From Nitrospirota bacterium (lineage in GTDB: Bacteria; Nitrospirota; Thermodesulfovibrionia; UBA6902): DNA of 64,000 bases. The notes beneath the pieces were generated by a model that was given only the letters and a program-made list of their open reading frames with translations, ran no database searches and was not told the DNA's origin. The translations under genes were made by a program, and so were the position numbers. The DNA lies in the NCBI GenBank assembly GCA_040758255.1, contig JBFLVX010000001.1, positions 132 to 64,131 of the forward strand, read 5' to 3'. Below are positions 25,901 to 51,306 of this stretch, piece after piece; the stretch's first letter is position 1, and every line of letters begins with the position of its first letter.

Positions 25901-26036
25901 ATGTGACAGCGAGGATCCTCTCAACACCTGCCCCGCTCTTTAATAGCGCGATATATCTTCTTGCGAGCTTCTCGGTCTTGCCCGAGCCTGCCGGCGATGA
26001 GATGATAACGCTCTTGTCAGTATTGAGGTAACTCAT
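22947..26036 (-). CDS. AddA/PcrA-like UvrD-family helicase with C-terminal PD-(D/E)xK nuclease domain
   Basis: Walker A SSPAGSGKTEKL, UvrD motifs ILVDEFQDTN, VGDRKQSIYYFRGA, C-terminal RIDRI...YNIYDYKT nuclease motif. Confidence 0.8.
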   Translation of the reverse strand: MSYLNTDKSVIISSPAGSGKTEKLARRYIALLKSGAGVERILAVTFTDKAAAEMKQRILTILKAEDSRLFDSLIEKMPLMRVSTIHSFCGTLLRRFSFEAGIDANYRVENAIDSRIMWEEIIYELLMEAGSGDGNHELFLQTIGEKGFRGLASLSDTVNYLYEKRPFSLEAVVPVHESTDTPQLLDELLSWEGAEEAIDGYRDYFNERETEKTAGFEDHFLTKDKEPRKKTPKGLSGIAEYKEWAVKMHDFWREKKLEEYANRALRIREIFKSCLKRHEFLKSSRALLDFSDLEYIAYRMLTEEPEWANILYAFDEKTDHILVDEFQDTNNFQWAVIDRLTEEWRSGLGAKRDEGIRPTVFLVGDRKQSIYYFRGANVEIFRRAKEKLSEWLGDEFYYEEVKENYRSAPAIIEFTNAVFSKIMSADDAAPAWMTGYGEFEANRKNLTGRGIVELIMLEDEDEGISLQREREADVIAKKIKGLVGSLRITERKTGIQRECMHADIAILLRKRTHLKKYEEALIRHGIPFIAVKGIGFYQEPEVAVLRALVYFLSNTKDDYSLYVLLKSPLFLLDEDVVLKAAGEEGDSLFSKLHGICAQESSVERTVSLLDKWFLVIKETPLAELIERVLVETGAWRYYYEPQQRANIKKFIRIMEETESGGRPLIKIRAFLERTISREEEAKANVNAEGMNAVKILTIHTAKGLEFPVVFLPAIEDQFTLRNNENLVYEKEGKFFFKSVTDAALRRGDEDFQLHLMKEEEEQKRLFYVAVTRAEEALFLITTWKERGKSFLSYLKEGVVLEKIDDGYSVKEDIPGLSIVDGAGIIAPPVAASAGKKKRPPRADFIPTPVRAEKEWKTVTGGILIKGQGMKTAVPGEILHEIFEKISKGDITDDGIAEMAARLFISRGMNESESEDGITEIKKTVALLKEKGIWQGIIQPVKDSFAEVPFVLESGTAVYRGRIDRIIKEGDAYNIYDYKTFPVADDEMKELVKEHSFQLDIYKKAVSKIFNTNAVKSFIVFTHIGEVRAV

Positions 26037-26039
26037 GGT

Positions 26040-37300: not shown

Positions 37301-39788
37301 CCTGAGAAAAGAAGAGCATGCCCCTTAGAAGATTCTCTGCCAGGAACTCTTCGCCGATCTTTTCAAGTATATCTGCACGCGCAAACTGCGCCCTGTCTTT
37401 CTCTCTTCCGTCAGAGCCATGCATTATGTTTGTCCATAGCTGAAGCGCGTCAACCAACTCGCCATTCTTTTCAGCCGTTTCCGCATTGGTAATAAGTCCG
37501 GCGATATCTGTCTGAGAAAGGATTGAACTCTTGGCCTCAGGTTTTATTGGAGGAGCTATTCCTGCAATCACTGTCTTCTCCATGTAATTTAGAAAACGGG
37601 TCAGAGTCAGGAGGTGATTGGAGAGCTCTATTTCAGATATCGCCTCTTTCTCAAGAAGGGGCAGCGGTAAAATTATCTTCTGGCCTGTGTAAATCCTGTC
37701 TATATCTTTAACTTCAGGATTAAATTCCTTGAAGATGCCAATATACTTCTTCATGATAATATCTTCCGGCAGCCTTAATTCTCTCTTTAGAATATTAATC
37801 AGCACCTCGTCTTTTTTAACAACGTATATATGCTGAGCATATCCTTCGGATCGCAGCGTCTCATGCAAGGATGCGGACGGTCCGTGAAGCAGGGATGCCT
37901 CAGAGACGCTGGCTAAAGATTTGATAAGGAGATTATAAGGATCATTCACCTTCTTTAAGAAGTCCAGGAACTCGGTTTCTGACAATTGATACGGCCTTGA
38001 AGAGCGGTACTGAAGCGCTGCTACGCTGCCGGCAAGAGAATTCGATGACCATAATTTAACCTCCTTGACATCCTGTGGAAGAGGTATCTCGGCGAACGCA
38101 GCCTTTATCAATCGGCCGACAGGCTCTCTTGCGCTGAAGGCTCCGCTCAGGGTTGTATCGGTCAAAGAAAGGACATCTCTCGCTTTAATTATCTTAAGCG
38201 CATTCTCTGCTGTATTTGCCATATACCGGCTTTTCGTGAGGCCTTCCTCTTTTGTGATGAGCATCTTAACAGGCTGCATATCATCAAGCTGTACAATAAT
38301 CTCCTGCCCGTCAATCGTTGTCTCCGCATCAACGATCACCCTGAGAAACGAAGGAGCAAACCGTTGAGGAAGGCTGTATCTTTGAATAAGCGGCTCGCTT
38401 TCAGTCCCTGAAGGAATAGGGATAAAAAGAGAGCGTGAAAGAGTCTTCAGCCCGTCATCAAGGTGCTGCTTTAAAACGAGCGCCTCATCAGGCTGCTGCG
38501 GCTCATTTAGCGCAGGAGTCATAAACCAGCAAAACTCCTGCGGCTCCCTGCTTAATTTATTTGAAGGCATGAGGTCGCGGTAAAATGTATGAGAAAGAAA
38601 TATCTCCTCCGCCTCTTTCTTCACCTCAGGATGATCAGGACGCTCAATGCCTTTCTGATCCATAAGCATGACAGCGGCAATGCCGCCCTCGCGCCTGCTG
38701 TTGTCCCGCCAGAGAAGTGCCGCGCTCTTTTTTGAGAGCGGCTCTTGCGCTCTCGCGGCATCCTGAAGCTCTTCATCGTTTATATCCCATGCAGATTTTC
38801 TAAGCATAGAGGGGGAACCTTCTTCCCTTGCCTCTTTTGCCGATACATCGGGCTCGTTTGCTCCTGCAAAGAGGTAATCAGGCGACTCCTGTTTTAAGAG
38901 CCTGATATACAGCGGTGCAGTTGTCTCCATCTCAAATGTATGCTCGCCCTCCGGTATCTCTATGTAAGCTGTCTCCTCACGACCGACCGCCTCGGGAAAT
39001 CCGTTCACAAAAGTTGTTGCGATCTCAGGCTTTGTCTCAAATTCAAGGGTCTGGAACGGGCGGTCATCAATCTTTAGATAGATATTGTATGACTGCGCCC
39101 TCCTGCTCTCGGGAGAGGGATAAGCGATGCGGCTTTCAATCGCCACCCTCTGAGCCTCTTTTGTGCTGAATGATACAGGCTCATGGGGTTTGATAAGCTT
39201 AAAGTTCTTCTCAACAGATCTTCCGCTGCGGTGAATGCGGGCGAACTTTCCGGGCAGGCTTATCATCCTGCGGTATGGGGCTATCTCATCCTGCGTCTCA
39301 TGGCGCGAGATAAAAAAGGCTATTTTTATGCCCTCGTCTTTATCAGGCTTACGGCTTACGCGCACGAGCGAAGGCTCCCTGTTTAAAGGAGAGAATATTA
39401 TTGATTTTAAGTCCGCAGAGAATTGATAAGGCAGAAATGAATAGGCTCCGGAGCCGTTTGAGACTGCAAGTTCAATGTCGTCAATAGAGAATTCGCATTC
39501 AGGATTATAAATACGCGCTGTCTCGCCGGAAGGAACCCTGAAGGTTACAAACTCTCCGGGCTTAAGCTCAGCCATATGAAGACCAGCATCGTAATTATAA
39601 GAAAGCTTCTTGCCGCTTACCCATTGCGGCGGCCCCTCTATATTATCCCAGCGCAAAGGCAGGTCATACTGCTTAAGAAGCCTTAACTGAAGATCGTCAA
39701 GCTTGGCGATGCTCCCTAAGGGAACCAGTATCAGGCAAAGAATCGTTAAGCAGAAAATCGCGGATTTCAGTTTTCCGTGTCTATTCAA
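34362..39788 (-). CDS. giant (1808 aa) secreted protein with signal peptide, LysM-like segment, TPR-like helical repeats and a beta-strand-rich C-terminal region ending in Tyr (possible outer-membrane export scaffold)
   Basis: Signal MNRHGKLKSAIFCLTILCLILVPLGSIA; LysM-like YVVKKDEVLINILKRELRLPEDIIMKKYIGIFKEFNPEVKDIDRIYTGQKIILPL; alternating-hydrophobic C-terminal 400 aa; 20-nt overlap with the PgsB-like gene downstream. Confidence 0.55.
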   Translation of the reverse strand: MNRHGKLKSAIFCLTILCLILVPLGSIAKLDDLQLRLLKQYDLPLRWDNIEGPPQWVSGKKLSYNYDAGLHMAELKPGEFVTFRVPSGETARIYNPECEFSIDDIELAVSNGSGAYSFLPYQFSADLKSIIFSPLNREPSLVRVSRKPDKDEGIKIAFFISRHETQDEIAPYRRMISLPGKFARIHRSGRSVEKNFKLIKPHEPVSFSTKEAQRVAIESRIAYPSPESRRAQSYNIYLKIDDRPFQTLEFETKPEIATTFVNGFPEAVGREETAYIEIPEGEHTFEMETTAPLYIRLLKQESPDYLFAGANEPDVSAKEAREEGSPSMLRKSAWDINDEELQDAARAQEPLSKKSAALLWRDNSRREGGIAAVMLMDQKGIERPDHPEVKKEAEEIFLSHTFYRDLMPSNKLSREPQEFCWFMTPALNEPQQPDEALVLKQHLDDGLKTLSRSLFIPIPSGTESEPLIQRYSLPQRFAPSFLRVIVDAETTIDGQEIIVQLDDMQPVKMLITKEEGLTKSRYMANTAENALKIIKARDVLSLTDTTLSGAFSAREPVGRLIKAAFAEIPLPQDVKEVKLWSSNSLAGSVAALQYRSSRPYQLSETEFLDFLKKVNDPYNLLIKSLASVSEASLLHGPSASLHETLRSEGYAQHIYVVKKDEVLINILKRELRLPEDIIMKKYIGIFKEFNPEVKDIDRIYTGQKIILPLPLLEKEAISEIELSNHLLTLTRFLNYMEKTVIAGIAPPIKPEAKSSILSQTDIAGLITNAETAEKNGELVDALQLWTNIMHGSDGREKDRAQFARADILEKIGEEFLAENLLRGMLFFSQEEQTREEALIKLTDFYRKRSDSEGLLSLFAAAAIRQPDYKKFVALSELLTENSEYEMALALGLLLPEPEQPLQAMIKSAHKAGWWKVFETLVEKIKETEEGHYWRGLKLEKDGDYTNAIYHLRRAGAKGMERASAIEKAVSIRSDLTGNSSDLTEWERWQAQHPQPFIWEEAPYIVTDYAGAANLYNKERDMYSRAFISQKDRPVKLTLMGPVSIRIEARPLHTDKSAEPLDGWLEIRGQGSLKVLPISNNVPSQNLVISGSEGMTPGIKAVAEYNVGAGLHHIEVSGGDMPLLIQTYIKSPEIRIGVLPPITPDTLAALTNGKIVGESECPVNEADATPALIDNDPANEVLKQMITLLWIAEKRPEQRSHALAKAEELSLKHPYAHGTRPLLNRIFRGTTLMPYRNIQSSAGVRMIEEKGWDPFSPGLRIRKALLSPVSPDEHVLYGYDSEIIYMKNLQSKEIQVTATIEDVGYLPLLPMTGYFQLDSERVDNINLAEGRQKTVLLMKIPAGEHFLRIGIKEPVPNQFLRMHIAEVKKGKEISVWDRPVELQYYIATEEEPVVMEIEGPSVLQIEELSNGKIYEGYRKIEEGWQTVKIPARDGQKETLYRFYRRGVKDEPVTPVRKYIAESEPKPEPLISPASPKVSAYLKLKDDYPLGGQEDGTWTLSGEFVERRNLQEDSNFQDGLEEFIELKATYRSFDDLRRTLFRTDMLGRIREFGGPTLGLKGSLDWRPINSSLDFQFGGSLYLQYPDKFLSGQREWSVLLNAKAAKRIELGTKTFHVPSLAVFQRYLSMESYGSYIPEKVDQDIFTPYKFGHKRGLILTDTLNYRPWLDTNLYLGASVVSNEDMDIFNPDNISLRAGWRQLIGAFQVNAEYRRNHYLSDDDRNNSSDRERVELEVLWEKWSKSERRLELGLDLIHELDTGVNSGMIFLRWHMGNGRGLRDFNYGEIDFLDIRERRVPSERNNTIEDAEERY

Positions 39789-40277
39789 TTAAATTATTCC
39801 TCTAAGATAGAATTGCCTCGCCGACTCTTTTTCTACACTCATCAGCAACCGGTAATGGGTCCAAGAGAGTTCCGGTCTTATGATTGGCAATTCGTCACGC
39901 AGCGCGTGACCTTTTCGCCGGGGCAAAGATTCATCACGCACTGCGTGATGAATTACAGACGAAGATTGTGAACGCAACGAGTTCAGATTTTCAAAAGAAA
40001 AATAGAATAGACGCATATAACGCAGGTTAGTCTGCGTGAAGCCCCTGCCGAATTCTGCCGTTAGCCTTCCAGAAAGCTCAGAGATAAGTTCATCTCCATA
40101 TCCTGCCTTTGCTCTGCCTTGCTGCTCCTCCTCTACAATTACCCTGCCAATATGCCAGTAAGCCTGTACCATTGCAGTATTGATATTCCTGGCAACGGCG
40201 CTTCTCGCCTCATGCAGGAGAGACTTTATATTCTCAAATAACTTTTTGTGCGGCTGATTTTTAACTATCTTGTTCAT
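39789..40277 (-). pseudogene. truncated N-terminal fragment of a DUF1016 (YhcG-like PD-(D/E)xK nuclease) gene
   Basis: YWHIGRVIVEEEQ, GYGDELISELSGRLTAEFGRGFTQTNLRYMRLFY and ELSWTHYRLLMSVEKESARQFY match the conserved N-terminal half of DUF1016. The frame stops where the nuclease core would begin, directly abutting the 1808-aa gene start. Confidence 0.55.
39894..39952. promoter_or_regulatory. pair of related palindromes TCACGC-N3-GCGTGA, 20 bp apart, about 100 bp upstream of the giant-gene start (operator-like)
   Basis: Seen directly: gtcacgc-agc-gcgtgac at 39894-39910, and a perfect 23-bp palindrome ttcatcacgca-c-tgcgtgatgaa at 39930-39952. Confidence 0.35.
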
Positions 40278-40583
40278 TGTCTAAAATCCTTGCCTATGAT
40301 AGTTTTATGGTTTCTTACTCTTCAGTCTTTTATTCACGGCCTTCCTGTCCCCGCTTCCCAGACACATTATACATTGTACATTGATTTATGCAATTTTTGA
40401 CTGAAAAATGCGCTGATATTTGATATGTTTTAAACATGGTTCAGGAGATCCGGAAGTTCATAACCACAAAATGCCAAGCTTTGCTCTTGTTTATTGCATT
40501 AATATGATAATATTCATATCATACATCAAGGAAATGTCCAATGGACATAATAATTGTTATACGAATAAAAAGAGAGATAACTA

Positions 40584-41396
40584 ATGATTCAACACCACTT
40601 CGAGGCAATTGAGAAAGCAATTATACAACTGGCCAAAATTCAAGATATAGCTGGTCATTCTATTCATAAAGGAACACCAAGGGAACTATTCATAAGAAAT
40701 TTTTTAGAAAAGCATTTGGGAAAAACAGTCAGCTTTGGAACGGGTGAAATAATTGATGCTGATTCGAAGCCAAGGAAATCAAGAAATCAGCACGATATCG
40801 TTATTTACAGAAATGAATTTCCGAAACTCGATTTTCAAGGTGGAATATCTGCATTTCTTGCAGAATCTGTTCTGGCGACCATAGAAGTGAAGTCGAATTT
40901 GGATTATAAAGAATTTAAAAAATCATTCAAATCAGCATTGAAGTGTAAAAAATTAAAAAGAAACTATTTTAGCGGTCCAACATTCTGGTATTTCCCCCCG
41001 AAAATATTGAATTATATCGTCACGTATGATGGCCCGGCAAAAATGAAAACAATATATGATTGGATTAAAAAAATAGAAGGGGAATTGCAATTTAGTTACC
41101 CAACGTTGCCTCCAACTCAGGAAGAGCGCAGAAACATTCCATCCCCTGGACTTGATGGTGTGTTCGTTATGGGCAAAGGGTTTATCCATTTTGATAATTT
41201 CATGATAGATGGCATAGATCCAAAAATAAGAAAAGAAAACCAATGGATGAGATGGGCGTTTGTTGATGCAAAAATTGGAAGTCTGCTCATGTTGTTTCTA
41301 AATCTTGCTCAACAAATTTGTATTCCTCAGCAAAAATCTATTCAATTAATTCCATATATGAAAAGAATAAATGGTAAGCTTCAATGGGGAAATTGA
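40584..41396 (+). CDS. hypothetical protein with a PD-(D/E)xK-like nuclease core motif (D ... E-V-K), encoded in a low-GC insertion
   Basis: QHDIVIY (candidate acidic D) followed about 35 aa later by AESVLATIEVKSN (ExK); no other recognisable domain; strongly AT-rich; 6-bp-arm palindrome ATGTCCAATGGACAT at 40534-40548 just upstream. Confidence 0.4.
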   Translation: MIQHHFEAIEKAIIQLAKIQDIAGHSIHKGTPRELFIRNFLEKHLGKTVSFGTGEIIDADSKPRKSRNQHDIVIYRNEFPKLDFQGGISAFLAESVLATIEVKSNLDYKEFKKSFKSALKCKKLKRNYFSGPTFWYFPPKILNYIVTYDGPAKMKTIYDWIKKIEGELQFSYPTLPPTQEERRNIPSPGLDGVFVMGKGFIHFDNFMIDGIDPKIRKENQWMRWAFVDAKIGSLLMLFLNLAQQICIPQQKSIQLIPYMKRINGKLQWGN

Positions 41397-41419
41397 AAAA
41401 ATCGTATAACAAGTCATTG

Positions 41420-41526
41420 CAGTGAACGAGTACCACAGGACACTTTTACAGATGAGCGATGACTTTAGATTTACAAACCATCTTTTTTGCTTTTTAACGT
41501 CATACAGTGGTACTCGTCACTGAATT
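41420..41526. repeat. about 17-bp imperfect inverted repeat (cagtgaacgagtaccac / gtggtactcgtcactg) separated by 69 bp, between convergent genes at the edge of the low-GC insertion
   Basis: Seen directly; the intervening sequence contains a T-run (catcttttttgcttttt). Confidence 0.35.
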
Positions 41527-41544
41527 CTACGTTGCAACCGTTAA

Positions 41545-42435
41545 TTAATTCTCCGCGCCCTCTATACATCCCCGAAAACTTGTCCTGACCTTTTTATCAT
41601 CCTTTAAGATCATCCTCATCGGCTTGCTCAATTCAATATGAATAAAGCCGTAATATCCCATCTTCCGCAAAGCAATGCCTGTTGTATTGGTGCTGCCTCC
41701 AAGTTCCTTTATCTCAATGGGATAAAGGCTTGACATGCCTGAGACATTATTTCCAAGACACTTGTCTATCTGCTCTGCCAGACTGCCCGGAATTTTACTG
41801 CCGGAGCTTACAATTATATCCGTCTCCAAGCCTCTTTTACTTCTGCGCTCCTCCTTTACAAAACCGTGCAGTTGAATTATATTCCCCAACGGATAAGCAT
41901 GCGCAAAGGCGCGGGCATAGGCAGTGAAATAACTCTCCTTCAAATGCGCAAGGTCGGAATTTCCAACCTTGTCGTCATCGTCAGAATTACGCGAAACAGT
42001 ATTCCATGCGGCAGACACAATCTTGCCTTCAAGCAAAAGATCGAGCGTTATCTCTCCTGTGTAAAGGTCATCAACGCTGTGAGGTGACTGGATCGCTAAC
42101 TTTTTATAATTCGAGAGTCTGAATATGTAAAAACCACGTCCTCTCTTCTTCCCCTCTTTCTCCTGAACGAGTATGAACTCCTCTCCTCCGTCTTTAATCC
42201 TGACAACCTTAAAATTGAGCTTATCCCATTCTCTTTGCACATCATCCGTAAGCCTGCCCTTGAAAAGGTATCCAAAGAGTTCCTCGGCTTTTCTAAGCTC
42301 CGTTGCTGAGGGTTGATTATAAGAGCCGCCTCTGCTCTCATTCAGGAAACGCTCTATTGCAGTTTCCGCATGAAGGGCAGAAGCATTCAGAAATATAAAG
42401 AGGAGGACCAGAAGCCTAATAAATAATGGTGTCAT
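41545..42435 (-). CDS. secreted hypothetical protein; tentative resemblance to the gamma-PGA hydrolase (PghP/PF05908-like) zinc-peptidase fold
   Basis: Signal peptide MTPLFIRLLVLLFIFLNASALHA; RGFYIFRLSNYKKLAIQSPHSVDDLYTGEI resembles the PghP N-terminal DYRI...APHGGGIEPGTSE segment; QLHGF resembles ISIHG; from memory only. Confidence 0.45.
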   Translation of the reverse strand: MTPLFIRLLVLLFIFLNASALHAETAIERFLNESRGGSYNQPSATELRKAEELFGYLFKGRLTDDVQREWDKLNFKVVRIKDGGEEFILVQEKEGKKRGRGFYIFRLSNYKKLAIQSPHSVDDLYTGEITLDLLLEGKIVSAAWNTVSRNSDDDDKVGNSDLAHLKESYFTAYARAFAHAYPLGNIIQLHGFVKEERRSKRGLETDIIVSSGSKIPGSLAEQIDKCLGNNVSGMSSLYPIEIKELGGSTNTTGIALRKMGYYGFIHIELSKPMRMILKDDKKVRTSFRGCIEGAEN

Positions 42436-44881
42436 CAGTCAATCCTCTCTCTTTGTAAAATTTTCTCTCTTCAAAAAGCCCCGGCAAGACCCTGCTCATG
42501 GAGAGATAGCCTCCTGTCCCGGACTCAAGGGCAAACCGGATGTGATAATCTCCGGGAGGCAGGTCGCTTCCGAGCCGGACAAAGAACAACTGTCCGCTTT
42601 CAAGGTAATCATTGTATGTATTGAGCACCGCCGACTGTTCCCTGATATCCGGCTTTATGCTGAACCTCTGCCTTGAGAAGGTCCAGCTCTCAAAAGGCTC
42701 AAGCAGTACAGCCCCAGCCGTATCAACGCTTGTCAGGATAGTATTTCTCTCCATATTCTTTGAAGGGCTGTAGAAGCGCACGGACAGGAGTTCATCTGAA
42801 GAGGTCTGCTTCTTATATATAAAGTCCAGCCCTTTCTTATCAAACCTGTTTACGAACCTCTTGAGAAAGACACGCTCGCCTCCCTCGATATTATTAAGAT
42901 AAAATTCCGCCTTCCCCGGGGATTCTACTCTTATATCATGCCTGCCGAATTTTACCGGGGGCAGTTGGATCTCTCCCCTTAAACCGGCTATACGGGTCTC
43001 ATAATACAGTTTGTTATCAAGAAAAAATTTCACGGAGACCGGCTCGGACGACTTTCGTATGTAAATAAGCGTTGGAGATATTTTGGCAAGACCGGCTATA
43101 TGGACAAAGTCCACGGATATATTATGATTGAGAGAGAGGAGCGAATAATAGCCCTCTCTATTTCTTCTGCCGGAATCCGGCGCTGCTTCCGTTGCTGTTA
43201 ATATGTAGCGGGACGGCCTTTTGCCTTCAGGATGAAAATCCTCCCATAGGTACCGGCCTGCCGCAAGGTCTTCGCTATCCTCAGCAGGGCGCGGCTGAGC
43301 GGCTATAAGCAGCGAGCGTCCGCCTGATGCCAGTCCTTTGTAATTTGCAGGACGCACGGCAAACCATCCCGGCTGCTTCTCTTCCTGAGCGGCTGAGGCA
43401 TAGTAGTCTTCAGGCACTCTCACTTCCCTGGTCATGCCATCGGGCCTTGTATAAGCCGCTATCATAATCTCTGAGCCGGATGAAAAGCGTATGGAGTCTA
43501 TGTTGTGAGAGATATAAAAATGGCTGACGGCAGGCTCGGAAATATCCATACCGCCGGGATTACCGGCCATCCAGTCGTAAAGAGAGAGCGTTTCTGGTAA
43601 TGGGATTGAACCTGATCTCACAATGCCGCCGTCTTTATTTATAAGCTGGTAATCCGCATATCTTAAATTCTCCGGTGTCCCGCCTTCCTGCTTTGGAATC
43701 TGATAACGAAATACAGCCCTGAGCGGAGTCGGCCTGTCGCCTGTATGGTGAATCTTGAACTCTACAGGCTGCCCTTCCCTCATTATAAATGACCTCGTAT
43801 AAATGGGAACCGGCGTGATCTCAATCTCTTCATCGCCGTTTATAAGAAAGGCTCTTACCGTTATATTATCTGAAGGGCTGACCTCTATCATCCCGCCTTT
43901 GAAAAGCTCTTCAAAACTCGCATTGCCGTCCTCCCATGAGACCGTATAATCCATACGCATGCCTATGCCCCTGCCGTACCATCTAAGGTTTATATCCTGC
44001 GGGCTCCTGCCTGACATGTTGAGAAATTCAAGCCGTATCTTACCCCCTTCTTCAGGGACCGGGATAATGCCCCGATGCCCTTCCTTTATGTACAATCCTA
44101 CGGGTTGGAGATCGAAGTCTGCCGCTTCGCCCTCAGACTCCTGCAATACATAGAGCTTCCTGCTCTGATAATCTTTGCCGTCAGCGCCTAACGGGCCGAG
44201 GGGTATCCATGTCCTCTGTATGAGGTTCCGTTTCTCCTCGTCAGCCAGTAATTCATGCGGGTAGACATTACCTTTGGTAAGCCTCGTCTTCTGTTTGTCG
44301 CTTAAGCGTCTCCATAGAAAGCCAGGCTGTTCTTTTTCATGTTCAAGGTAAATATAGAGCCTCAGCCCGACATCAGATACAGATTCGTCCTTAGAGAGAA
44401 GGCGGAACCTTATGAATTTCCCCTTCTCCATACCTGAGAAATCAATCCTCATGCTTCGTGAATCAAACGGCTCAAGGTCAGAGTCTATATAAAAAGAGTT
44501 TGTAAAAATATCCCCTTCCTCATCTTTGAAGGTTGTCATTTTGGCGCGGTGATGATAAATACGGTCTGAGAGTATATTCTCATTTCTGTCTAACACCTGA
44601 AACTGATACGCATAATGCCTCTCATCGTCCGGCTTTGCGTCATAAGAAGAGGGCATATTCGCATTTGTGACCACCCTTGCCTGACTCCCTATCAGCGGGA
44701 TCGGAAAGGAGGTCCACTTCTTGTCATCAAGAATGTAGGAGATGCTGACTATGGCGCGGTCCATCCTCTTCTGGTACAGCCTGTCTTTGGTCGTAAGCGC
44801 CTGGAACAGGGGTATGCCGAACTTGAAAACAATAAAGCCTGCAAGCAGGGTTATAATTGTCCCTTTAATTATGTATCTCAA
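42416..44881 (-). CDS. large (821 aa) N-terminally membrane-anchored hypothetical protein, co-transcribed with the PgsC-like fusion
   Basis: Single N-terminal TM (IITLLAGFIVFKFGIPLF), no recognised motif; 17-bp and 20-bp overlaps with neighbouring genes indicate an operon. Confidence 0.5.
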   Translation of the reverse strand: MRYIIKGTIITLLAGFIVFKFGIPLFQALTTKDRLYQKRMDRAIVSISYILDDKKWTSFPIPLIGSQARVVTNANMPSSYDAKPDDERHYAYQFQVLDRNENILSDRIYHHRAKMTTFKDEEGDIFTNSFYIDSDLEPFDSRSMRIDFSGMEKGKFIRFRLLSKDESVSDVGLRLYIYLEHEKEQPGFLWRRLSDKQKTRLTKGNVYPHELLADEEKRNLIQRTWIPLGPLGADGKDYQSRKLYVLQESEGEAADFDLQPVGLYIKEGHRGIIPVPEEGGKIRLEFLNMSGRSPQDINLRWYGRGIGMRMDYTVSWEDGNASFEELFKGGMIEVSPSDNITVRAFLINGDEEIEITPVPIYTRSFIMREGQPVEFKIHHTGDRPTPLRAVFRYQIPKQEGGTPENLRYADYQLINKDGGIVRSGSIPLPETLSLYDWMAGNPGGMDISEPAVSHFYISHNIDSIRFSSGSEIMIAAYTRPDGMTREVRVPEDYYASAAQEEKQPGWFAVRPANYKGLASGGRSLLIAAQPRPAEDSEDLAAGRYLWEDFHPEGKRPSRYILTATEAAPDSGRRNREGYYSLLSLNHNISVDFVHIAGLAKISPTLIYIRKSSEPVSVKFFLDNKLYYETRIAGLRGEIQLPPVKFGRHDIRVESPGKAEFYLNNIEGGERVFLKRFVNRFDKKGLDFIYKKQTSSDELLSVRFYSPSKNMERNTILTSVDTAGAVLLEPFESWTFSRQRFSIKPDIREQSAVLNTYNDYLESGQLFFVRLGSDLPPGDYHIRFALESGTGGYLSMSRVLPGLFEERKFYKERGLTDDTIIY

Positions 44882-47800
44882 AATTACCTCTGAATGTCAT
44901 ATTGCTGGCCCTTGAATCCACAAACCTCACAATATTCTTAAGCGATATATCCCCCTTGTCAAGAACCAGGGACTTGCCGGATTCCCTCGGCAGCAGGTTT
45001 GCAACAAGGACCAGCCTCCCTGATGGAGAATAAACCAGCATAAATGACTGTTTTGAATTAATATCTATCAGCCTCTCGATCCTGTGATCAGGCCAGTAAT
45101 AGAGTATGTTCTTCAGGTTTATAATATCCTGCGTAGCTGTGTACTCCCGCAGTTCCGAGATCATCTTAGGAGAGACAGAAGAGGAATCGCCGAAGATCCC
45201 CTTCTGAACGATATGGTTATACAGGAGGTCTTCCACGGTCTGAATGCCCAAGGCCTTGACCTCTGCCTGCTGCCATTTATTCTCAGTCTGCTGGCGGTAA
45301 GTCTCCCTGGCAAAAGGCGAGAGCCAGAGCATTGCAAGCTCTTTATTAACCGACTGCTCAAGATAGAACAAGGGAGCGGTAAAGCCTGTTTCATATCCTG
45401 ACGTTTCAATAGTCCCATCAACAAAACGCGTGCTCAATTCATCTTCTTCAAGTATTTTAATCAACCCTGCGCCAAGGCTGCTCAGCCTCTTCCTCTCAAC
45501 AGCCCCGTTGTCAAAGGCTAACAAGACATCGGCTGAAGGCATGGGCCTCCCCTCTTTTATGCCGAGAGAGCGGCATTGGACTGTCATGAACGTCTCGTCT
45601 CCAGCCTCACGTAAGATGACCTGATCTGCAAGGTTAAAGAGGTTTGATTTATTCTCCATCTTTATCAGGTCTGAGGCCTGATCAGCATTGGCGTAAGGAT
45701 GGGTACCACCTATCAGAAGCGCCCGCGCCTTCATCCTCTCAAACATTGATACGCCGTACTCAAACACATGAAGCTCGTAAAGCGGCCTCGGTATCTCTAT
45801 GATGTAATTGCCTGATGCGCCGAGCCTTAACACATATGTGCCCCAGTAGCGGCGTTTCCGGAGGCCTTCATCTTCAAGGAGTATGATATAGTCCTGCTCT
45901 GATATCCTGTCCCTGTACATGATGACCTTGTACCCAAGCAGCGCCGCGGCTGAAGTTATTATGCGCAGTTCTTCCGAACCCTGTTCCGACCACTTGCCTT
46001 CCCTGTACTCGCTTTTAGATATTCTTACCAGCGGGGCCAGCACCTCTTCGTCAAAGAGGAGCAGCTCTTCGAGCTTCGGCTCTACATACAGGTCTGACCC
46101 CTTCTCCGCAATTATCCCCTTTGTATTTAAAAGCCAGTCCTGAAGGTACCCGTCTATTCTCTGCTGGTGCAGTTGGACGCTCACATTATCCCCGGAAGGC
46201 AGGGTCTTGAATAATATCCTCCTTAAATCAGCCCTGTTTATAAATATCTCCGCGAATCCGGAAGGTGTTGAGTCACGCTGAATGTTGTTGAAAGGAGTCT
46301 TGCCCCACTCTATCTTAATGTCCCTGATAAGGTCTTTAAATACCGCAAGGTCAAGCCCCGGAGGCAGTTCCGACTTTACCCATAAAGTGGTCTTAGGCTC
46401 AGGCGGCTCTATCTCTTTTCCGCCGGGGCGTTTGCCGCTCAGGATGCGTATCTTATCAATTGTGTAGCCGCGCACCTGAAGCACGTTCCTCCGCGCTGTC
46501 TCTTCATGAAATTTATGAAAGAATGTATAGGGCTTTGTAAGAACATTAAGGGGCTCCTGATCAGGCCCTTTTATGCTCGCGCCTGAAACAGCCAGCGCCC
46601 TGCCCTGCAGCAGGGTGAAGAGCCTTGCGCCTGCCTCAACGGCAGCCCATTCATCAAGCGGCGCCGGAACTTCTACAAGAGGCCCTGCCTTCGCCATTGT
46701 ATCAATAGCGTAAATTCCCCTTCCCCTGGATTCCCCGTCCTCTTTAAGATAGATGTATCTATCATTTATCAGAAAGAGCTTATAGTTTATGCCCTCTAAT
46801 AATATTTGCGCCTGCAGAAGTATATCCTCATCGCGCTTCTCACTGTAATTTAAAAGCATTCTGATCGCCCTGGAGAATGCCTCTGTCTCCTGCGGGACAG
46901 GGATCTGCGCCTCCTGTATGCCGCGGGTCTGGTAAATGGCAACCTTATCTTTTCTTATAATATCTATAAGGTTTACGCCTTCAAGCCGGGCTATCCTTTC
47001 TGCACCCTCTGCCTCAAGAGCGGTCGTTCCTTCAATCCACGGGTTTTTCACATAGGTGAGGGAATACCCGATTACGCTTGCAGCTACAACCGAGACGAGC
47101 GAGACCTGCAATACAGCCCGTGCAACCTTTAAGGTGATGCTCTTTTCATGCATCTTTATTGCTATCAGGGTCGGAAGCAGATAGCCAAAGCCGAAGAAAT
47201 CCGTAATCTTTTGCTGCGGCAGCAGCCAGATAATGATATATGAAAGAATGTACTTATATACAAAGCTTATGCTGAAGAACAAGAGGATCTTCCGCGCTCC
47301 TTCAATCGTCATTCTTTTAAAAAGAGGCAGGCGTAACACCAGTATGCCGAGAGAGAGAACAATAAGCGACTCAATTATTGATGCCGCGATCTTTGTTGGA
47401 TTATACCACTGAAGCGCCAGCAAAGAGGGGATAAGTATGCCGCTGAATTCCCAGCCGTAGAGCAGGTTCATCCGCGAAGCAACAAGGCTTGTGGTGATAA
47501 GTATTATGTATGCCTTGGGGCTTGCCAGCATTGAGGCGGCAATGTCTTCATAGACATATCCAAGGTTGCTTATCGTGAAGTTTGTATATTCCATCAGAAC
47601 AAAACGCACAATAAGATAAGTAATGCCGACAGTCACCGCGAGCGGGAAAAGCCCGCGCAGAAGCCCCGGCTTCCAGAACTGATTGGCGATCAATGCAACG
47701 ATGATAAGGCCGAAGCTGTGGAGGTTGTTGCGGTAGTCGAAGTTTACATAAAACCGGCTGTTGACCATCTCTCCGATATACGGCAGGAGAAAGACATCAA

Positions 47801-48128
47801 ATAATATTCTTACAAACAGACTGAGCAGAAGCAGGGCAAAGAAGCGGTCTCTTCCAAAGAGGTTGTTCCATTTAAAAGTCTTTGAAAGGCTCTCGGAGAA
47901 GAGCCACACGATAAGATATGTGACGATCCCTTCAATGAAGACAGATACCGCCGCCCATGGCTTGGATATAATGAGGGGGACAATGTATCCGGGAACAACC
48001 AGGCCTGATAAGACCCAGCCGAGACGCAGATTGAAGAATGTTGAGACTATTACTCCGACAAAGACGGTGGTGGTAACTGAGCTGGCCAAGCTCCCCTGAG
48101 GAAAGATGTTGAGGAAGCTGCTCTCCAT
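44865..48128 (-). CDS. 1087-aa protein: N-terminal tandem duplication of PgsC/CapC-like membrane domains (about 360 aa) fused to an about 720-aa soluble domain containing degenerate PghP-like repeats
   Basis: Copy 1: LGWVLSGLVVPGYIVPL...TYLIV...FGRDRFFALLLLSLFVRILFDVF...GLIIVALIANQFWKPGL (cf. PgsC GIVPAGLVVPGYLGL...TYVIV...YGRRKFAAMLITGIVLKIAFDFL...GIIVPGLIANTIQKQGL). Copy 2: GWEFSGILIPSLLAL ... GFGYLLPTLIAIKMHEKSITL. Soluble part has RGIYAIDTMAKAGPLVEVPAP and NYIIEIPRPLYELHVFEYG ... LLIGGTHPY repeats. Confidence 0.75.
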   Translation of the reverse strand: MESSFLNIFPQGSLASSVTTTVFVGVIVSTFFNLRLGWVLSGLVVPGYIVPLIISKPWAAVSVFIEGIVTYLIVWLFSESLSKTFKWNNLFGRDRFFALLLLSLFVRILFDVFLLPYIGEMVNSRFYVNFDYRNNLHSFGLIIVALIANQFWKPGLLRGLFPLAVTVGITYLIVRFVLMEYTNFTISNLGYVYEDIAASMLASPKAYIILITTSLVASRMNLLYGWEFSGILIPSLLALQWYNPTKIAASIIESLIVLSLGILVLRLPLFKRMTIEGARKILLFFSISFVYKYILSYIIIWLLPQQKITDFFGFGYLLPTLIAIKMHEKSITLKVARAVLQVSLVSVVAASVIGYSLTYVKNPWIEGTTALEAEGAERIARLEGVNLIDIIRKDKVAIYQTRGIQEAQIPVPQETEAFSRAIRMLLNYSEKRDEDILLQAQILLEGINYKLFLINDRYIYLKEDGESRGRGIYAIDTMAKAGPLVEVPAPLDEWAAVEAGARLFTLLQGRALAVSGASIKGPDQEPLNVLTKPYTFFHKFHEETARRNVLQVRGYTIDKIRILSGKRPGGKEIEPPEPKTTLWVKSELPPGLDLAVFKDLIRDIKIEWGKTPFNNIQRDSTPSGFAEIFINRADLRRILFKTLPSGDNVSVQLHQQRIDGYLQDWLLNTKGIIAEKGSDLYVEPKLEELLLFDEEVLAPLVRISKSEYREGKWSEQGSEELRIITSAAALLGYKVIMYRDRISEQDYIILLEDEGLRKRRYWGTYVLRLGASGNYIIEIPRPLYELHVFEYGVSMFERMKARALLIGGTHPYANADQASDLIKMENKSNLFNLADQVILREAGDETFMTVQCRSLGIKEGRPMPSADVLLAFDNGAVERKRLSSLGAGLIKILEEDELSTRFVDGTIETSGYETGFTAPLFYLEQSVNKELAMLWLSPFARETYRQQTENKWQQAEVKALGIQTVEDLLYNHIVQKGIFGDSSSVSPKMISELREYTATQDIINLKNILYYWPDHRIERLIDINSKQSFMLVYSPSGRLVLVANLLPRESGKSLVLDKGDISLKNIVRFVDSRASNMTFRGNFEIHN

Positions 48129-48615: not shown

Positions 48616-51306
48616 TCAGTCGTTAGCCGCCCTCTTAAGCCGCATGATAAAGCGCATCCCGACACCTATGTCGCTTGACGCTTCAAGCTCTCCGCCCCAC
48701 TGTTTGACCTGTTTTATTACCGCGCGCAATTTCTTCAGTTCGCCTGAACTTATCTCTTCGGTATCCGAGTAGATGTATTTATGGAAAAGCTCAGCGGGCA
48801 TTCCGAGGCCTGTATTGGAGAATGTGCAGATGACCCATTCAGACGTCTCTTCCAATATTATTGTAACTTTGCCGTCTTCAACCGAATCATTCATTATGAT
48901 CTTAAGCAGATCCACGATAACCTCTTTTAATTTAGGGGATGCAAAGACCATACATACGAGATCAGGAACTTTCAGGTCTAACTGTATCTTGCGGAGCCCG
49001 GCCTCTTCAGAGAGCTCTTCAACGCCGGCTATCGCAGGCTTCCTTATATCCACAGGATAAAGCTCCAGTTCGTTGATGAAGATATCTTTTGCAAGATAAT
49101 CCTGTATCTCTTTAAGGAAATCATTGACAGCGTTTACTTTATCATTCAGCATCCCGATAGCGAGTTTCCGCTGAGCGTCAGGCAGGGCTTCGTGGCTCAG
49201 CAGAGAAGCCGCGAGCGCGATAGCCTCAATGTGGTTGCGGAGGCGGTAATCCATGTCTTTAAAGAGGGTCTCTTTAAACAGGTCGAGTGCCTTCAGGTAG
49301 CTGACATCAACCAGATCAAAGAGGGTGCCGAGAACATGAAAAGGATGCGCCCTTGAAGAGGGCATCCCGCTGTCATCATAAATTATGGGTTTGACATAGA
49401 GTATATACGCCTTGTTCGTGTCAGACTCTAACGATGCGGAGAGAGACATCACCTCCTGATCAAGCACCACCTTCTGCAGGAGCAGGCGGACCCTTTCAGG
49501 TTCCACCCCGCTTAATTTGACCGCCAGATCAAGGGCTGTCATATTATAGGGGGCTATTCCCGCTGATTTTAAGAGTTCAAACATCTGTTTGTTGATATAG
49601 ATAACCCTGCCGAAGAGGTCATAAAGTATCGTGCTTGTATTCATATCGTCAAGTATCTTTTCTAACAGAATGAGCCTCTCCTCCAAAAGCGCCATATTCT
49701 CGCTCAGTTCCTTGTAAAAGACCCTGGCGACTTCATGACGCAGTAATTTCCTGAGGCCGGTCAATTCACGTTTCTTTAACTCTCTATGCCGCCTTTGATA
49801 CAGCAGTTCGCTTATCTGTGATGCATAATCTCTTACAACTGATATGAAAGCGCTGAGCTCAGGCGCTGCTGCCGGCTCAATGGTGAAGGCCCAGAAACCA
49901 AGAACATCATTGGCAAAGATGAGCGGAACAACAAACTCTTTCTCCCCTTCCTTGATATCTTTAAAAAATGGCCTCTTCACTTCCACCGGACTGTTCTCTG
50001 TTATGGCTGTGCTGTACGGTTCTCTTTCATAATCCCTTCGTCTCTCATAAATATCCGACAGCAGGCAGTTGAGGGACTTGACCTCTCTGAGACGATGGTC
50101 GTCCTCAACCTTTTCAAGAAAGATCACCTTGTTGAGCTGAAGGGTCTGGCTGACAAAAACAATTAACTGAGCCCAGTACTCTTCGGAGGTGTAAAAGCTT
50201 TCAGGCAGAAACCTTTTTTCCAGCTTGATTGATGTCTCAATCAGCATCCTCTTGGTGCCTTCTTCCTCAAGCACCGCTTTTCTTGTAAAGATGAAGATTG
50301 ATAACCCTATCTGAACAGCTAAAACTTCTACCAAAGGCGTCCACGCAGAAAAATATGAGAGCGCCAGCCATGTGAGGATTAAATAAAACAACAATATAGT
50401 TGCGGAAAAAGCTAAGAGAAAAGAGAGCCGGATATTTAAAAATTTGTACGCCGCCAGATTAATAAGAACAATAACTATAAACAATATGAACTTGAGTCCG
50501 GGACCGGCTGTTTTAATCCAGTTCTTTGACATCAGGGTATCTATGGCGTAACCATGAAATTCGAGCATTGACATGGTCTTATTGTTTGATATGATCGGCG
50601 TGTGCAAACCCGGTATTGTCCCTGATGTCCCAAAACCGATAACTACGGTCTTACCGTTAACCAGTTCTTTAATTATTCCGCCTGTCATCGCCCTCTCAAT
50701 GCTGACATTTGGAAGGCCGCTCAGTTTGCCGTTGAAATTGACAGTGTATTCTTCGGGAAATCCGGACTCTTTTTTAGCGTCTCCGCCGGATGCAATGGCT
50801 TCAAGAGATGGGTATGCCACCCCCTCTATGTTGAATGAACTGTGTGAATACCGGTAAATGCCGTGGGACGCATCAGGCAGGCTGACTACACCAAACCTGA
50901 TACGACTCTCATCCGTAATGGCAGGAAGCAGCTCAAGAAAAAATTTATCCGGGTTGTATATATCGGAAATAATTTCGCGGCCGAATGTAATGTTACCGTA
51001 TCCGGCAGATGCATTGTAAAAATTTTTGGAAACATGTTTCGGCAGAAAGGTGAAGACTACCTGAGAAGGCTTCATTCTCTCCAGTATATTGAGCAGTTCG
51101 AGCCAGAGTTCATCTCCATCGCTCCTGTGATCCAGATCAGCCTCGATCAGGAGGATATTTGACGATGCCTTGGTGACTTCAGGGGTAAGAGTTACAAACT
51201 TGTCATAAAAGAGCCCGTCCGGCATGCGCAGCAGGCCTAACATGCTCACAAGCCATACGGCTATCGCTATTCCTATGCCGAAAGCCAAGTATCTTCTAAG
51301 AGACAT
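48616..51306 (-). CDS. sensor histidine kinase with N-terminal CHASE2-like extracytoplasmic domain, TM helices, PAS-like region, HisKA and HATPase_c
   Basis: N-terminal TM plus about 250-aa extracytoplasmic segment followed by three TMs (FILFIVIVLINLAAYKF, LSFLLAFSATILLFYLILTWLALSYF, LVEVLAVQIGLSIFIF) as in CHASE2; C-terminal G-boxes NTGLGMP and GVGMRF. Confidence 0.7.
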   Translation of the reverse strand: MSLRRYLAFGIGIAIAVWLVSMLGLLRMPDGLFYDKFVTLTPEVTKASSNILLIEADLDHRSDGDELWLELLNILERMKPSQVVFTFLPKHVSKNFYNASAGYGNITFGREIISDIYNPDKFFLELLPAITDESRIRFGVVSLPDASHGIYRYSHSSFNIEGVAYPSLEAIASGGDAKKESGFPEEYTVNFNGKLSGLPNVSIERAMTGGIIKELVNGKTVVIGFGTSGTIPGLHTPIISNNKTMSMLEFHGYAIDTLMSKNWIKTAGPGLKFILFIVIVLINLAAYKFLNIRLSFLLAFSATILLFYLILTWLALSYFSAWTPLVEVLAVQIGLSIFIFTRKAVLEEEGTKRMLIETSIKLEKRFLPESFYTSEEYWAQLIVFVSQTLQLNKVIFLEKVEDDHRLREVKSLNCLLSDIYERRRDYEREPYSTAITENSPVEVKRPFFKDIKEGEKEFVVPLIFANDVLGFWAFTIEPAAAPELSAFISVVRDYASQISELLYQRRHRELKKRELTGLRKLLRHEVARVFYKELSENMALLEERLILLEKILDDMNTSTILYDLFGRVIYINKQMFELLKSAGIAPYNMTALDLAVKLSGVEPERVRLLLQKVVLDQEVMSLSASLESDTNKAYILYVKPIIYDDSGMPSSRAHPFHVLGTLFDLVDVSYLKALDLFKETLFKDMDYRLRNHIEAIALAASLLSHEALPDAQRKLAIGMLNDKVNAVNDFLKEIQDYLAKDIFINELELYPVDIRKPAIAGVEELSEEAGLRKIQLDLKVPDLVCMVFASPKLKEVIVDLLKIIMNDSVEDGKVTIILEETSEWVICTFSNTGLGMPAELFHKYIYSDTEEISSGELKKLRAVIKQVKQWGGELEASSDIGVGMRFIMRLKRAAND

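Follow-up and report, generated by a model that had tools for sequence, protein, structure and literature searches.

The question raised by this locus is what a gene product of 1087 amino acids might be, given that proteins of this kind, ~1080 amino acids long, carry in the databases the label 'PgsC/CapC' only. In Bacillus, PgsC is a separate polytopic membrane subunit of ~150 amino acids, and to our knowledge little is understood of how poly-gamma-glutamate (PGA) is made and exported, PgsC has no established role, and the structure of PgsBC is unsolved. The gene lies in a 64,000-nucleotide stretch of a Nitrospirota contig (the window, the whole stretch of DNA analysed here), and a preliminary description had proposed two PgsC-pattern segments in tandem, the second more diverged, fused to about 720 amino acids with degenerate PghP-like repeats. 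The protein and its parts are the following.

44865..48128, minus strand: whole open reading frame of 1087 amino acids, tandem PgsC/CapC plus a soluble module with two pseudo-hydrolase domains (from domains, homologues and an AF2 model)
47655..48059, minus strand: PgsC/CapC domain 1, residues 24-158 (PF14102, 96.9 bits)
47133..47483, minus strand: PgsC/CapC domain 2, residues 216-332, the diverged copy (PF14102, 71.9 bits)
46212..46940, minus strand: pseudo-hydrolase domain A, residues ~397-639, PghP/FGase fold, presumed ligand positions Ala489, Glu493 and Arg553
45270..45938, minus strand: pseudo-hydrolase domain B, residues ~731-953, presumed ligand positions Arg781, Glu785 and Arg853 (hhalign, residue table)
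44868..45242, minus strand: C-terminal alpha/beta domain, residues ~963-1087 (secondary structure, pLDDT 82-91 in the AF2 model)

Aligned to the Pfam CapC profile (PF14102), both membrane segments stand well above the gathering cut-off of 27 bits, and the tandem arrangement is borne out, as is the greater divergence of the second copy, visible in its score (71.9 bits, compared to 96.9 for the first) and in its motifs: domain 1 retains the canonical GLVVPGY and GLIIVALIANQ, where domain 2 has GILIPSL and GYLLPTLIAIK. When the fusion is set beside the PgsC/CapC of the Bacillus PgsBCA(E)/CapBCA(DE) systems, both of its membrane halves match the profile almost end to end, and motifs of the G-x-V-V-P-G-Y type and a basic cytoplasmic loop are kept; the fusion differs, however, in having two copies per chain and ~720 amino acids of C-terminal extramembrane sequence, and it scores 76.2 bits with the PgsC equivalog TIGR04011, under the cut-off of 96.45. 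A further suggestion, that each PgsC unit is itself an internal 3+3 repeat, was discarded as a motif-level impression only, since hhalign of the half-domains was non-significant (E 0.02-0.06).

It could be argued that the long reading frame is an artefact, either because a mis-assembly or frameshift joined separate genes, or because the second 'PgsC' is a hydrophobic region without any relationship to the family, whose match merely reflects its composition. The one observation on that side is that the second halves of the two copies, compared as profiles, show no significant similarity (E 0.36). Their first halves, however, are homologous (E 1.5e-5), copy 2 reaches its score across nearly the whole of PF14102, the copies have in common E66/E253 and an N-L-(R/x)-x-G-W turn, and the same ~1080-aa layout recurs across independent assemblies, in over 1300 clusters, so that this reading has next to no probability left and is already refuted. 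The tandem-PgsC fusion is in fact a large fixed family and not a peculiarity of this Nitrospirota genome: full-length homologues show 46-91% identity over 97-100% of the length, full-length alignment finds the architecture fixed in more than 1377 protein clusters, and it occurs in at least 435 species genomes, among Gamma-, Beta- and Zetaproteobacteria, Desulfobacterota, Magnetococcales, Planctomycetota and Campylobacterota. In homologues of ~1050-1110 amino acids the soluble part begins, nearly invariably, at residue ~375-390. The AF2 model of the fusion has a pLDDT of 80.5, with a full-model pTM of only 0.59.

The nature of that soluble part is best approached through a paralogue encoded two genes away.

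41545..42435, minus strand: p296, 296 amino acids, predicted secreted amidohydrolase of the PghP/FGase fold, the intact paralogue of the fused repeats

A signal peptide is predicted in p296, and its family has invariant His119, Asp123, Arg149, His190, His266 and Glu268, together with conserved Cys226 and Cys290. The top four among its closest structures with assigned activity are PghP, YndL, N-formylglutamate amidohydrolase and succinylglutamate desuccinylase, all of which cleave glutamate amide bonds, and these include both known gamma-PGA hydrolases. The fold and the invariant His119, Asp123, His190 and Glu268 are compatible with hydrolysis of gamma-glutamyl amides by p296; Pfam returned no match among 35 of its homologues.

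Domains A and B are the product of an internal duplication (hhalign, E 4e-20), and both are homologous to the p296 family, with E-values of 8.9e-14 and, for domain B, 1.2e-8 (hhalign probability 95.6). The PghP/FGase fold assignment holds for both, and the degenerate PghP-like repeats first suspected in these ~720 amino acids are hence two domains of that fold with their His positions replaced. Across 40 homologues, the position of p296 His119 is occupied by Ala in repeat A (33/40) and by Arg in repeat B (39/40), that of His190 by Arg in both copies (40/40), and that of Glu268 by a hydrophobic residue in repeat A and Trp in repeat B, both conserved; the only acidic residue retained is a Glu, kept in both copies at the position of Asp123. 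The metal-binding His/acidic/His triad and the catalytic Glu are absent from both repeats, His119, His190 and Glu268 being the positions that invariance and fold point to as ligands or catalytic residues. Because the His of this presumed metal site are replaced by conserved Ala and Arg, repeats A and B are probably not hydrolases.

The nearest known enzymes are PghP (PDB 3a9l), YndL (5onj) and N-formylglutamate amidohydrolases (2odf, 2q7s), but at the level of sequence no Pfam family and no PDB chain was matched, and the fused copies further differ from these enzymes in the conserved replacement of His by Ala or Arg. They also differ from the fold group in being tethered to a membrane synthase subunit, an arrangement that we know of for no other PghP/FGase-fold member. 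On the soluble part, Pfam gave no match at E up to 10, PF05908 and PF05013 included, and NCBIfam likewise none; stand-alone versions of the module with a signal peptide were not found, shorter matches being N-truncated fragments that start inside PgsC copy 2.

The preliminary description also spoke of a remodelled membrane core of the synthase complex, and on this point the neighbouring genes are informative.

48616..51306, minus strand: sensor histidine kinase, 896 amino acids, a large periplasmic loop followed by three TM helices
48138..48509, minus strand: stand-alone receiver-domain response regulator directly upstream of the fusion (PF00072, E 1.5e-29)
42416..44881, minus strand: p821, 821 amino acids, with a single N-terminal membrane anchor, always the next gene after the fusion
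39789..41544: low-GC insertion with a DUF1016_N fragment and a DUF6602 gene, splitting the operon in this genome only
34362..39788, minus strand: p1808, 1808 amino acids, signal-peptide protein, candidate periplasm-spanning or outer-membrane export component
30188..34381, minus strand: p1397, 1397 amino acids, with HEAT repeats in its N-terminal half, then a hydrophobic helix (702-720), the PgsB-like ligase domain and a tail at the C-terminus
31232..32257, minus strand: PgsB-like amide-ligase domain, residues 709-1050 of p1397 (TIGR04012, E 4.6e-61)

Order and strand are conserved in 85 loci as histidine kinase, [receiver], tandem-PgsC fusion, p821, p296, p1808 and p1397, the receiver gene being found in 32 of them. 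In most loci the gene upstream is that of the kinase, and CHASE2 was scored in one orthologue. Of 80 metagenome loci for which the PgsB-like domain served as seed, 77 have the HEAT part and 78 the tail, with p1808, p296 and p821 upstream. The linkage of the tandem-PgsC gene with a PgsB-like ligase is thus conserved across loci and, because this ligase domain sits in the same operon, a remodelled membrane core is the natural reading. The domain reaches 206.6 bits with TIGR04012, just under the cut-off of 222.7, and has a P-loop, GWGTRGKS, at residue 738 of p1397. Compared with the Bacillus PGA synthase, the PgsB-like ligase is likewise in the same operon but is embedded in a HEAT-repeat protein of 1397 amino acids, PgsA/CapA and PgsE were not found, the hosts are diderms, and the operon has large envelope proteins. 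The hydrophobic helix of p1397 is preceded by ~700 amino acids of HEAT repeats and no signal peptide, which fits poorly with the simple N-out anchor of Bacillus PgsB. In p1808, an alpha-amphipathic (TPR-like) middle, whose match to TPR is faint (E 0.84), is followed by a beta-amphipathic C-terminal region of ~300 amino acids, in which amphipathicity only suggests a barrel; an export role for this protein is plausible from these features. Pfam and NCBIfam returned no known domain for p821 and no match for p1808, and PDB sequence searches with the profiles of the fusion protein and of the p296, p821 and p1808 families, and with p1397, gave nothing usable, the PgsC and PgsB parts matching no chain. 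Among the 31 ORFs of the window scanned with Pfam none matched PgsA/CapA (PF09587), homologues of glutamate racemase and GGT/CapD were not found in the window, and PADLOC gave no defence-system match for any operon protein. The low-GC insertion is not part of the system.

Which side of the membrane the soluble module is on bears directly on what it could do. Reading the two basic loops alone (residues 81-95 and 266-280) would place it in the cytoplasm, and this placement was revised after the family-wide K/R count and published PhoA data were taken into account. With the 12-crossing N-out/C-out model, the family-averaged K+R count is 15.3 inside and 6.4 outside. In B. subtilis, PgsC-PhoA fusions put the basic loop in the cytoplasm and, because the full-length fusion was active, the C-terminus outside, even though that data set is called partly inconclusive by its own authors (PMC7490850). 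From the positive-inside rule and these data, a periplasmic location of the module is modestly favoured. Alternatively, the protein could have the same role in the synthase core with each PgsC unit making four crossings with re-entrant half-helices, both termini inside and the soluble module in the cytoplasm, where the dead domains would hold the growing chain end, or dock or regulate the PgsB-like ligase and HEAT domain, and so serve as a scaffold or processivity clamp. The AF2 model has four helices that are just 10-14 residues long (45-55, 139-152, 229-238 and 317-329), each preceded by coil, which is what re-entrant elements would look like, and if they are re-entrant the module would be cytoplasmic. 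Moreover, the module has no conserved cysteine, in contrast to Cys226 and Cys290 of the secreted p296 family; a large cytoplasmic assembly is plausible, given that the ligase domain, as a user of ATP, has to lie in the cytoplasm and that the HEAT half of p1397 has no signal peptide; and four crossings are also compatible with four of the five PhoA data points for Bacillus PgsC (PMC7490850). We nevertheless consider this arrangement rather unlikely, as the charge count is worse for the 8-crossing N-in/C-in model (10.3 inside, 12.6 outside), the N-terminus and the inter-domain linker are net acidic and nearly devoid of K/R, stretches 36-55 and 139-152 have charged residues on both flanks as membrane-crossing segments do, the activity of the full-length PgsC-PhoA fusion speaks for an outside C-terminus, and the nearest paralogue, p296, is secreted.

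With the module in the periplasm, we think it probable that the fusion is the inner-membrane core of a conserved apparatus for the synthesis and export of a polyglutamate-type polymer in diderms. The two head-to-tail PgsC/CapC domains would form a covalent, by now asymmetric, pseudo-dimer in the membrane, partnered by the PgsB-like, ATP-dependent amide ligase domain of p1397, encoded at the end of the operon. Domains A and B, duplicated from the same stock as the neighbouring p296, would most likely bind a polymer rich in carboxylates, or the end of that polymer, and not cut it, because their His gave way to conserved Ala or Arg while the fold and the acidic residue were kept; they might thereby steer or hold back the nascent chain on its exit from the PgsC core and pass it to the envelope proteins p821 and p1808. 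The intact p296 may trim or release the polymer, and the CHASE2 kinase and receiver may control the system. The polymer itself could well be poly-gamma-glutamate, but the chemistry may differ from that of Bacillus gamma-PGA, because the TIGR04011 and TIGR04012 scores fall under the equivalog cut-offs.

Those same sub-threshold matches invite another explanation, namely that this is no polyglutamate synthase, and that the doubled CapC-like domain serves to transport or channel some other substrate, for instance gamma-glutamyl or wall-derived peptides, or another polyamide, the dead hydrolase domains binding the substrate and the PgsB-like, Mur-type ligase adding residues to a different acceptor. 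It would sit well with the lack of a PgsA/CapA hit in the window, with p821, p1808 and the HEAT half of p1397 having no counterparts in PgsBCAE, and with a hydrolase fold group that also contains peptidoglycan amidases and carboxypeptidases. A single operon that combines PgsB-like and PgsC-like domains with a hydrolase close to both known gamma-PGA hydrolases is, however, most simply read as a PGA-type system, and the four top structural neighbours of that hydrolase all act on glutamate amides; we therefore find this explanation improbable.

As for the assembly as a whole, a polyglutamate-type apparatus would follow an operon logic similar to that of the cellulose Bcs, PNAG Pga and alginate Alg systems, all with an inner-membrane synthase core, although by analogy only, as no operon protein is homologous to a component of Bcs, Pga or Alg. 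The extramembrane polymer-handling module on the synthase core can be compared with BcsB, and the predicted secreted polymer-specific hydrolase p296 with BcsZ, AlgL and PgaB; p1808 in turn recalls BcsC and PgaA in its very large size, its signal peptide, its alpha-repeat-like middle part and its beta-rich C-terminal region. Here, however, an ATP-dependent amide ligase takes the place of a glycosyltransferase as the predicted polymerase, the outer-membrane pore is a candidate, and the PilZ protein adjoining the operon is not conserved. The REC-PilZ gene, considered as a possible conserved part of the operon, is present in 0/80 loci and was rejected.

A broader proposal, which we put forward tentatively and at somewhat less than even confidence, is that diderms of many phyla possess a previously unrecognised envelope-spanning machine that makes and exports a poly-gamma-glutamate-like polyamide, in which PgsC works as a dimer and hydrolase domains have turned into non-catalytic polymer handlers that couple the synthase to export proteins. 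In a literature search of incomplete coverage, neither the tandem-PgsC fusion architecture nor its operon was described, and the 'PgsC/CapC' label hides the architecture. If the proposal is correct, the fixed fusion would show in what stoichiometry the PgsBC synthase works and on which side its product exits: a natural tandem fusion that is strictly conserved speaks for PgsC acting in pairs, and fusion to domains of a polymer-binding type would mark the face where the chain emerges. The family would also offer a clean example of an enzyme turned pseudoenzyme beside a paralogue of predicted activity. Further, the operon would predict polyglutamate-like polymers in many environmentally important Gram-negative lineages in which they have so far not been looked for, and such polymers would be relevant to metal binding and to the matrices of biofilms and granules.

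The hosts of the fusion include sulfur and iron oxidisers, sulfate reducers, sludge bacteria of the Accumulibacter/Competibacter type, and giant sulfur bacteria.

The 1087-aa fusion protein, in which a membrane part is joined to a soluble module of about 720 residues, is encoded among the following features.

44865..48128, minus strand: fusion protein ORF, 1087 aa
41545-42435, two genes downstream of the fusion gene: p296, a 296-aa PghP/FGase-fold protein with a predicted signal peptide
39789-41544: low-GC (0.385) insert between the p296 and 1808-aa genes, this genome only, splitting the operon; its minus strand carries a truncated ORF of the DUF1016_N type (YhcG-like nuclease), its plus strand a DUF6602 ORF
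34362-39788, minus strand: 1808-aa protein
30188-34381, minus strand: 1397-aa protein with a PgsB-like ligase domain
29472-30176, plus strand: receiver plus PilZ (c-di-GMP-binding) protein, convergent with the end of the 1397-aa gene
22947-28676, minus strand: AddA/AddB-type pair (UvrD helicase plus PD-(D/E)XK; AddB_N plus PD-(D/E)XK)

The coordinates of the preliminary description, 47050-48128, correspond to residues 1-360, the hydrophobic part of the fusion protein. Here Pfam matched Caps_synth_CapC (PF14102) twice, and when the segments were scanned alone, residues 24-158 scored 96.9 bits and residues 216-332 scored 71.9 bits against a gathering score of 27, each copy covering nearly all of the 119 profile positions. 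Because both matches are near-complete and far above this threshold, the tandem PgsC/CapC duplication claimed in that description is confirmed by the profile alignment it had proposed, and chance likeness between hydrophobic segments is ruled out as a source of the matches. The second copy is indeed the more diverged one, and profile-profile comparison of the two is significant for their first halves only (E 1.5e-5). The fusion protein thus belongs to the PgsC/CapC family by its Pfam domains, but departs from it in equivalog score (TIGR04011, 76.2 bits, below the cut-off of 96.45), in not standing alone and in lacking linkage to PgsA; PgsA/CapA, GGT and glutamate racemase were not found in the window.

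This architecture is widespread. More than 1377 relatives were found among 5.8 billion protein clusters, the best 120 of which (1028-1122 aa, 46-91% identity, 94-100% of the query aligned) are labelled plainly 'PgsC/CapC' at NCBI. Besides the Nitrospirota MAG that contains the window, at least 435 carriers were found when genomes were scanned at one per species, in Gamma-, Beta- and Zetaproteobacteria, Desulfobacterota, Magnetococcales, a Planctomycetia MAG and a Campylobacteraceae MAG, including Thiomargarita, Parabeggiatoa, Thiodiazotropha, Accumulibacter, Competibacter, Nitrosomonas, Mariprofundus, Geobacter and Desulfobacter. When the soluble part was the sole query, an exhaustive HMMER search returned 669 representatives at 50% clustering, and no stand-alone module was found among them: in nearly all full-length representatives (about 1050-1110 aa) the match begins at about 375-390, and the shorter ones are fragments starting inside PgsC copy 2. 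Our literature search found no description of the fusion or its operon, and the system is real, widespread and unstudied.

In 85 loci the order is a sensor kinase of about 900 aa (one orthologue has CHASE2), a receiver in some loci, the fusion, and proteins of about 815, 300 (the hydrolase), 1800 and 1400 aa, with gene order and strand identical throughout and counts limited by contig ends only. Residues 709-1050 of the 1397-aa protein, which has a P-loop (GWGTRGKS), matched TIGR04012 (PgsB) with E 4.6e-61 and 206.6 bits, the cut-off being 222.7. In metagenome loci seeded on this ligase domain, the HEAT-ligase-tail protein was present in 77-80 of 80, and the 1800-aa, 300-aa and 815-aa genes preceded it wherever the contig sufficed. 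From the conserved gene set and domain matches, the operon joins a doubled PgsC to a PgsB-like ligase and a hydrolase of the PghP fold. Neither the 821-aa protein, which has an N-terminal anchor, nor the 1808-aa protein has detectable relatives of known function. The latter has a signal peptide; its middle is alpha-amphipathic and matches TPR faintly, and its C-terminal 300 aa or so are beta-amphipathic.

Residues ~366-1087 of the fusion protein matched no Pfam family and, by sequence, no PDB chain. They contain an internal duplication (~447-557 versus ~731-857, hhalign probability 99.3, E 4e-20), and p296 shares the motifs of these repeats, A and B, but with histidines absent from the fused copies. 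A p296 family profile built from 54 members from syntenic loci gave alignments of 229 columns with repeat A (probability 98.1, E 8.9e-14) and of 206 columns with repeat B (probability 95.6, E 1.2e-8), so that the earlier designation 'degenerate PghP-like repeats' is correct as to fold and superfamily. The module therefore agrees with PghP/FGase hydrolases in fold, but differs from them in catalytic residues and in sequence-profile membership.

Zinc amidohydrolases of this fold are expected to carry a His / acidic / His plus Glu set. Across 35 diverse p296 members, His119, Asp123, Arg149, Asp161, Gln188, His190, His266, Glu268 and Arg274 are invariant, which, judged from sequence, is the kind of set expected.

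Residues of p296 and their counterparts in the fused repeats (40 sequences of the fusion family)
His119: repeat A, Ala (33/40); repeat B, Arg (39/40)
Asp123: repeat A, Glu (39/40); repeat B, Glu (38/40)
His190: repeat A, Arg (40/40); repeat B, Arg (40/40)
His266: repeat A, Glu; repeat B, Ile/Val/Met
Glu268: repeat A, hydrophobic; repeat B, Trp (40/40)

Because the substituted residues are themselves conserved, this pattern points to a maintained non-catalytic function rather than decay, and arginine at the former metal site would fit binding of a carboxylate-rich ligand. In the p296 family, Cys226 is nearly invariant and Cys290 invariant, suggesting a disulfide in the secreted hydrolase; no conserved cysteine was found in the homologous fused repeats.

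In the AF2 model of the fusion protein, eight helices are long and four are short (10-14 residues, with coil before each). Should these short helices be re-entrant, a PgsC unit would have four membrane crossings and the soluble module would lie in the cytoplasm; should they span the membrane, there would be six crossings per unit and the module would be periplasmic. As family averages, the twelve-crossing N-out/C-out model places 15.3 K+R inside and 6.4 outside, against 10.3 and 12.6 for the eight-crossing model, and K/R is almost absent from the N-terminus and the inter-unit linker, both of which are acidic. Published PhoA fusions of B. subtilis PgsC in E. coli indicated a cytoplasmic location for the basic loop at about residue 73 and an external one for the full-length C-terminus, and the GFP data were considered inconclusive by their authors (PMC7490850). 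Together with the secreted p296 and two other secreted operon proteins, the charge counts and PhoA results lead us to consider a periplasmic module modestly the more probable, although its location is the weakest link of our overall reading.

We propose that the two PgsC units form a covalent pseudo-dimer, the membrane core of a synthase, at which the PgsB-like domain, cytoplasmic because ATP is needed, would polymerise glutamate or a close analogue. We infer that the chain would exit through or along the PgsC pair and be received by the dead hydrolase domains, which would bind without cutting and hand it on to two proteins of the envelope, of 821 and 1808 aa, while intact p296 would trim or release the polymer and the CHASE2 kinase and receiver would regulate the system. 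Such a mode of working would resemble that of Bacillus PgsBC, combined with an operon logic like that of Gram-negative synthase-dependent secretion systems, and the fusion is informative about the mode of action of PgsC.

In the 1397-aa protein, about 700 aa of HEAT sequence, its N-terminal half, precede the ligase without a signal peptide, followed by a lone 18-residue hydrophobic helix (702-720) and a basic stretch, RMIRRIR. With a simple N-out anchor of the Bacillus PgsB type, these 700 aa would lie outside although no signal peptide is present; possibly the helix is instead monotopic or docks into the PgsC core. Residues 649-708 of the 1808-aa protein hold a weak LysM-like stretch (NF008399, E 0.015), which may be a peptidoglycan contact of an envelope-spanning assembly. 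The p296 and 1808-aa genes adjoin in more than 50 other loci, and the low-GC insert that separates them here could be a small islet of mobile or defence character. Control by c-di-GMP is a feature of cellulose or alginate systems; the receiver-PilZ gene hints at it, but was rejected as a conserved operon part, being absent 3' of the ligase gene in 80 of 80 metagenome loci. In a Desulfobacteraceae MAG (locus L007, 3838-19391), the gene order varies: the gene for the PgsB-like protein is found upstream of that for the kinase rather than at the operon end, and the p296 homologue about 3.6 kb beyond the 821-aa gene. The AddA/AddB-type helicase-nuclease pair downstream of the operon region is ordinary repair machinery, unrelated to the fusion.
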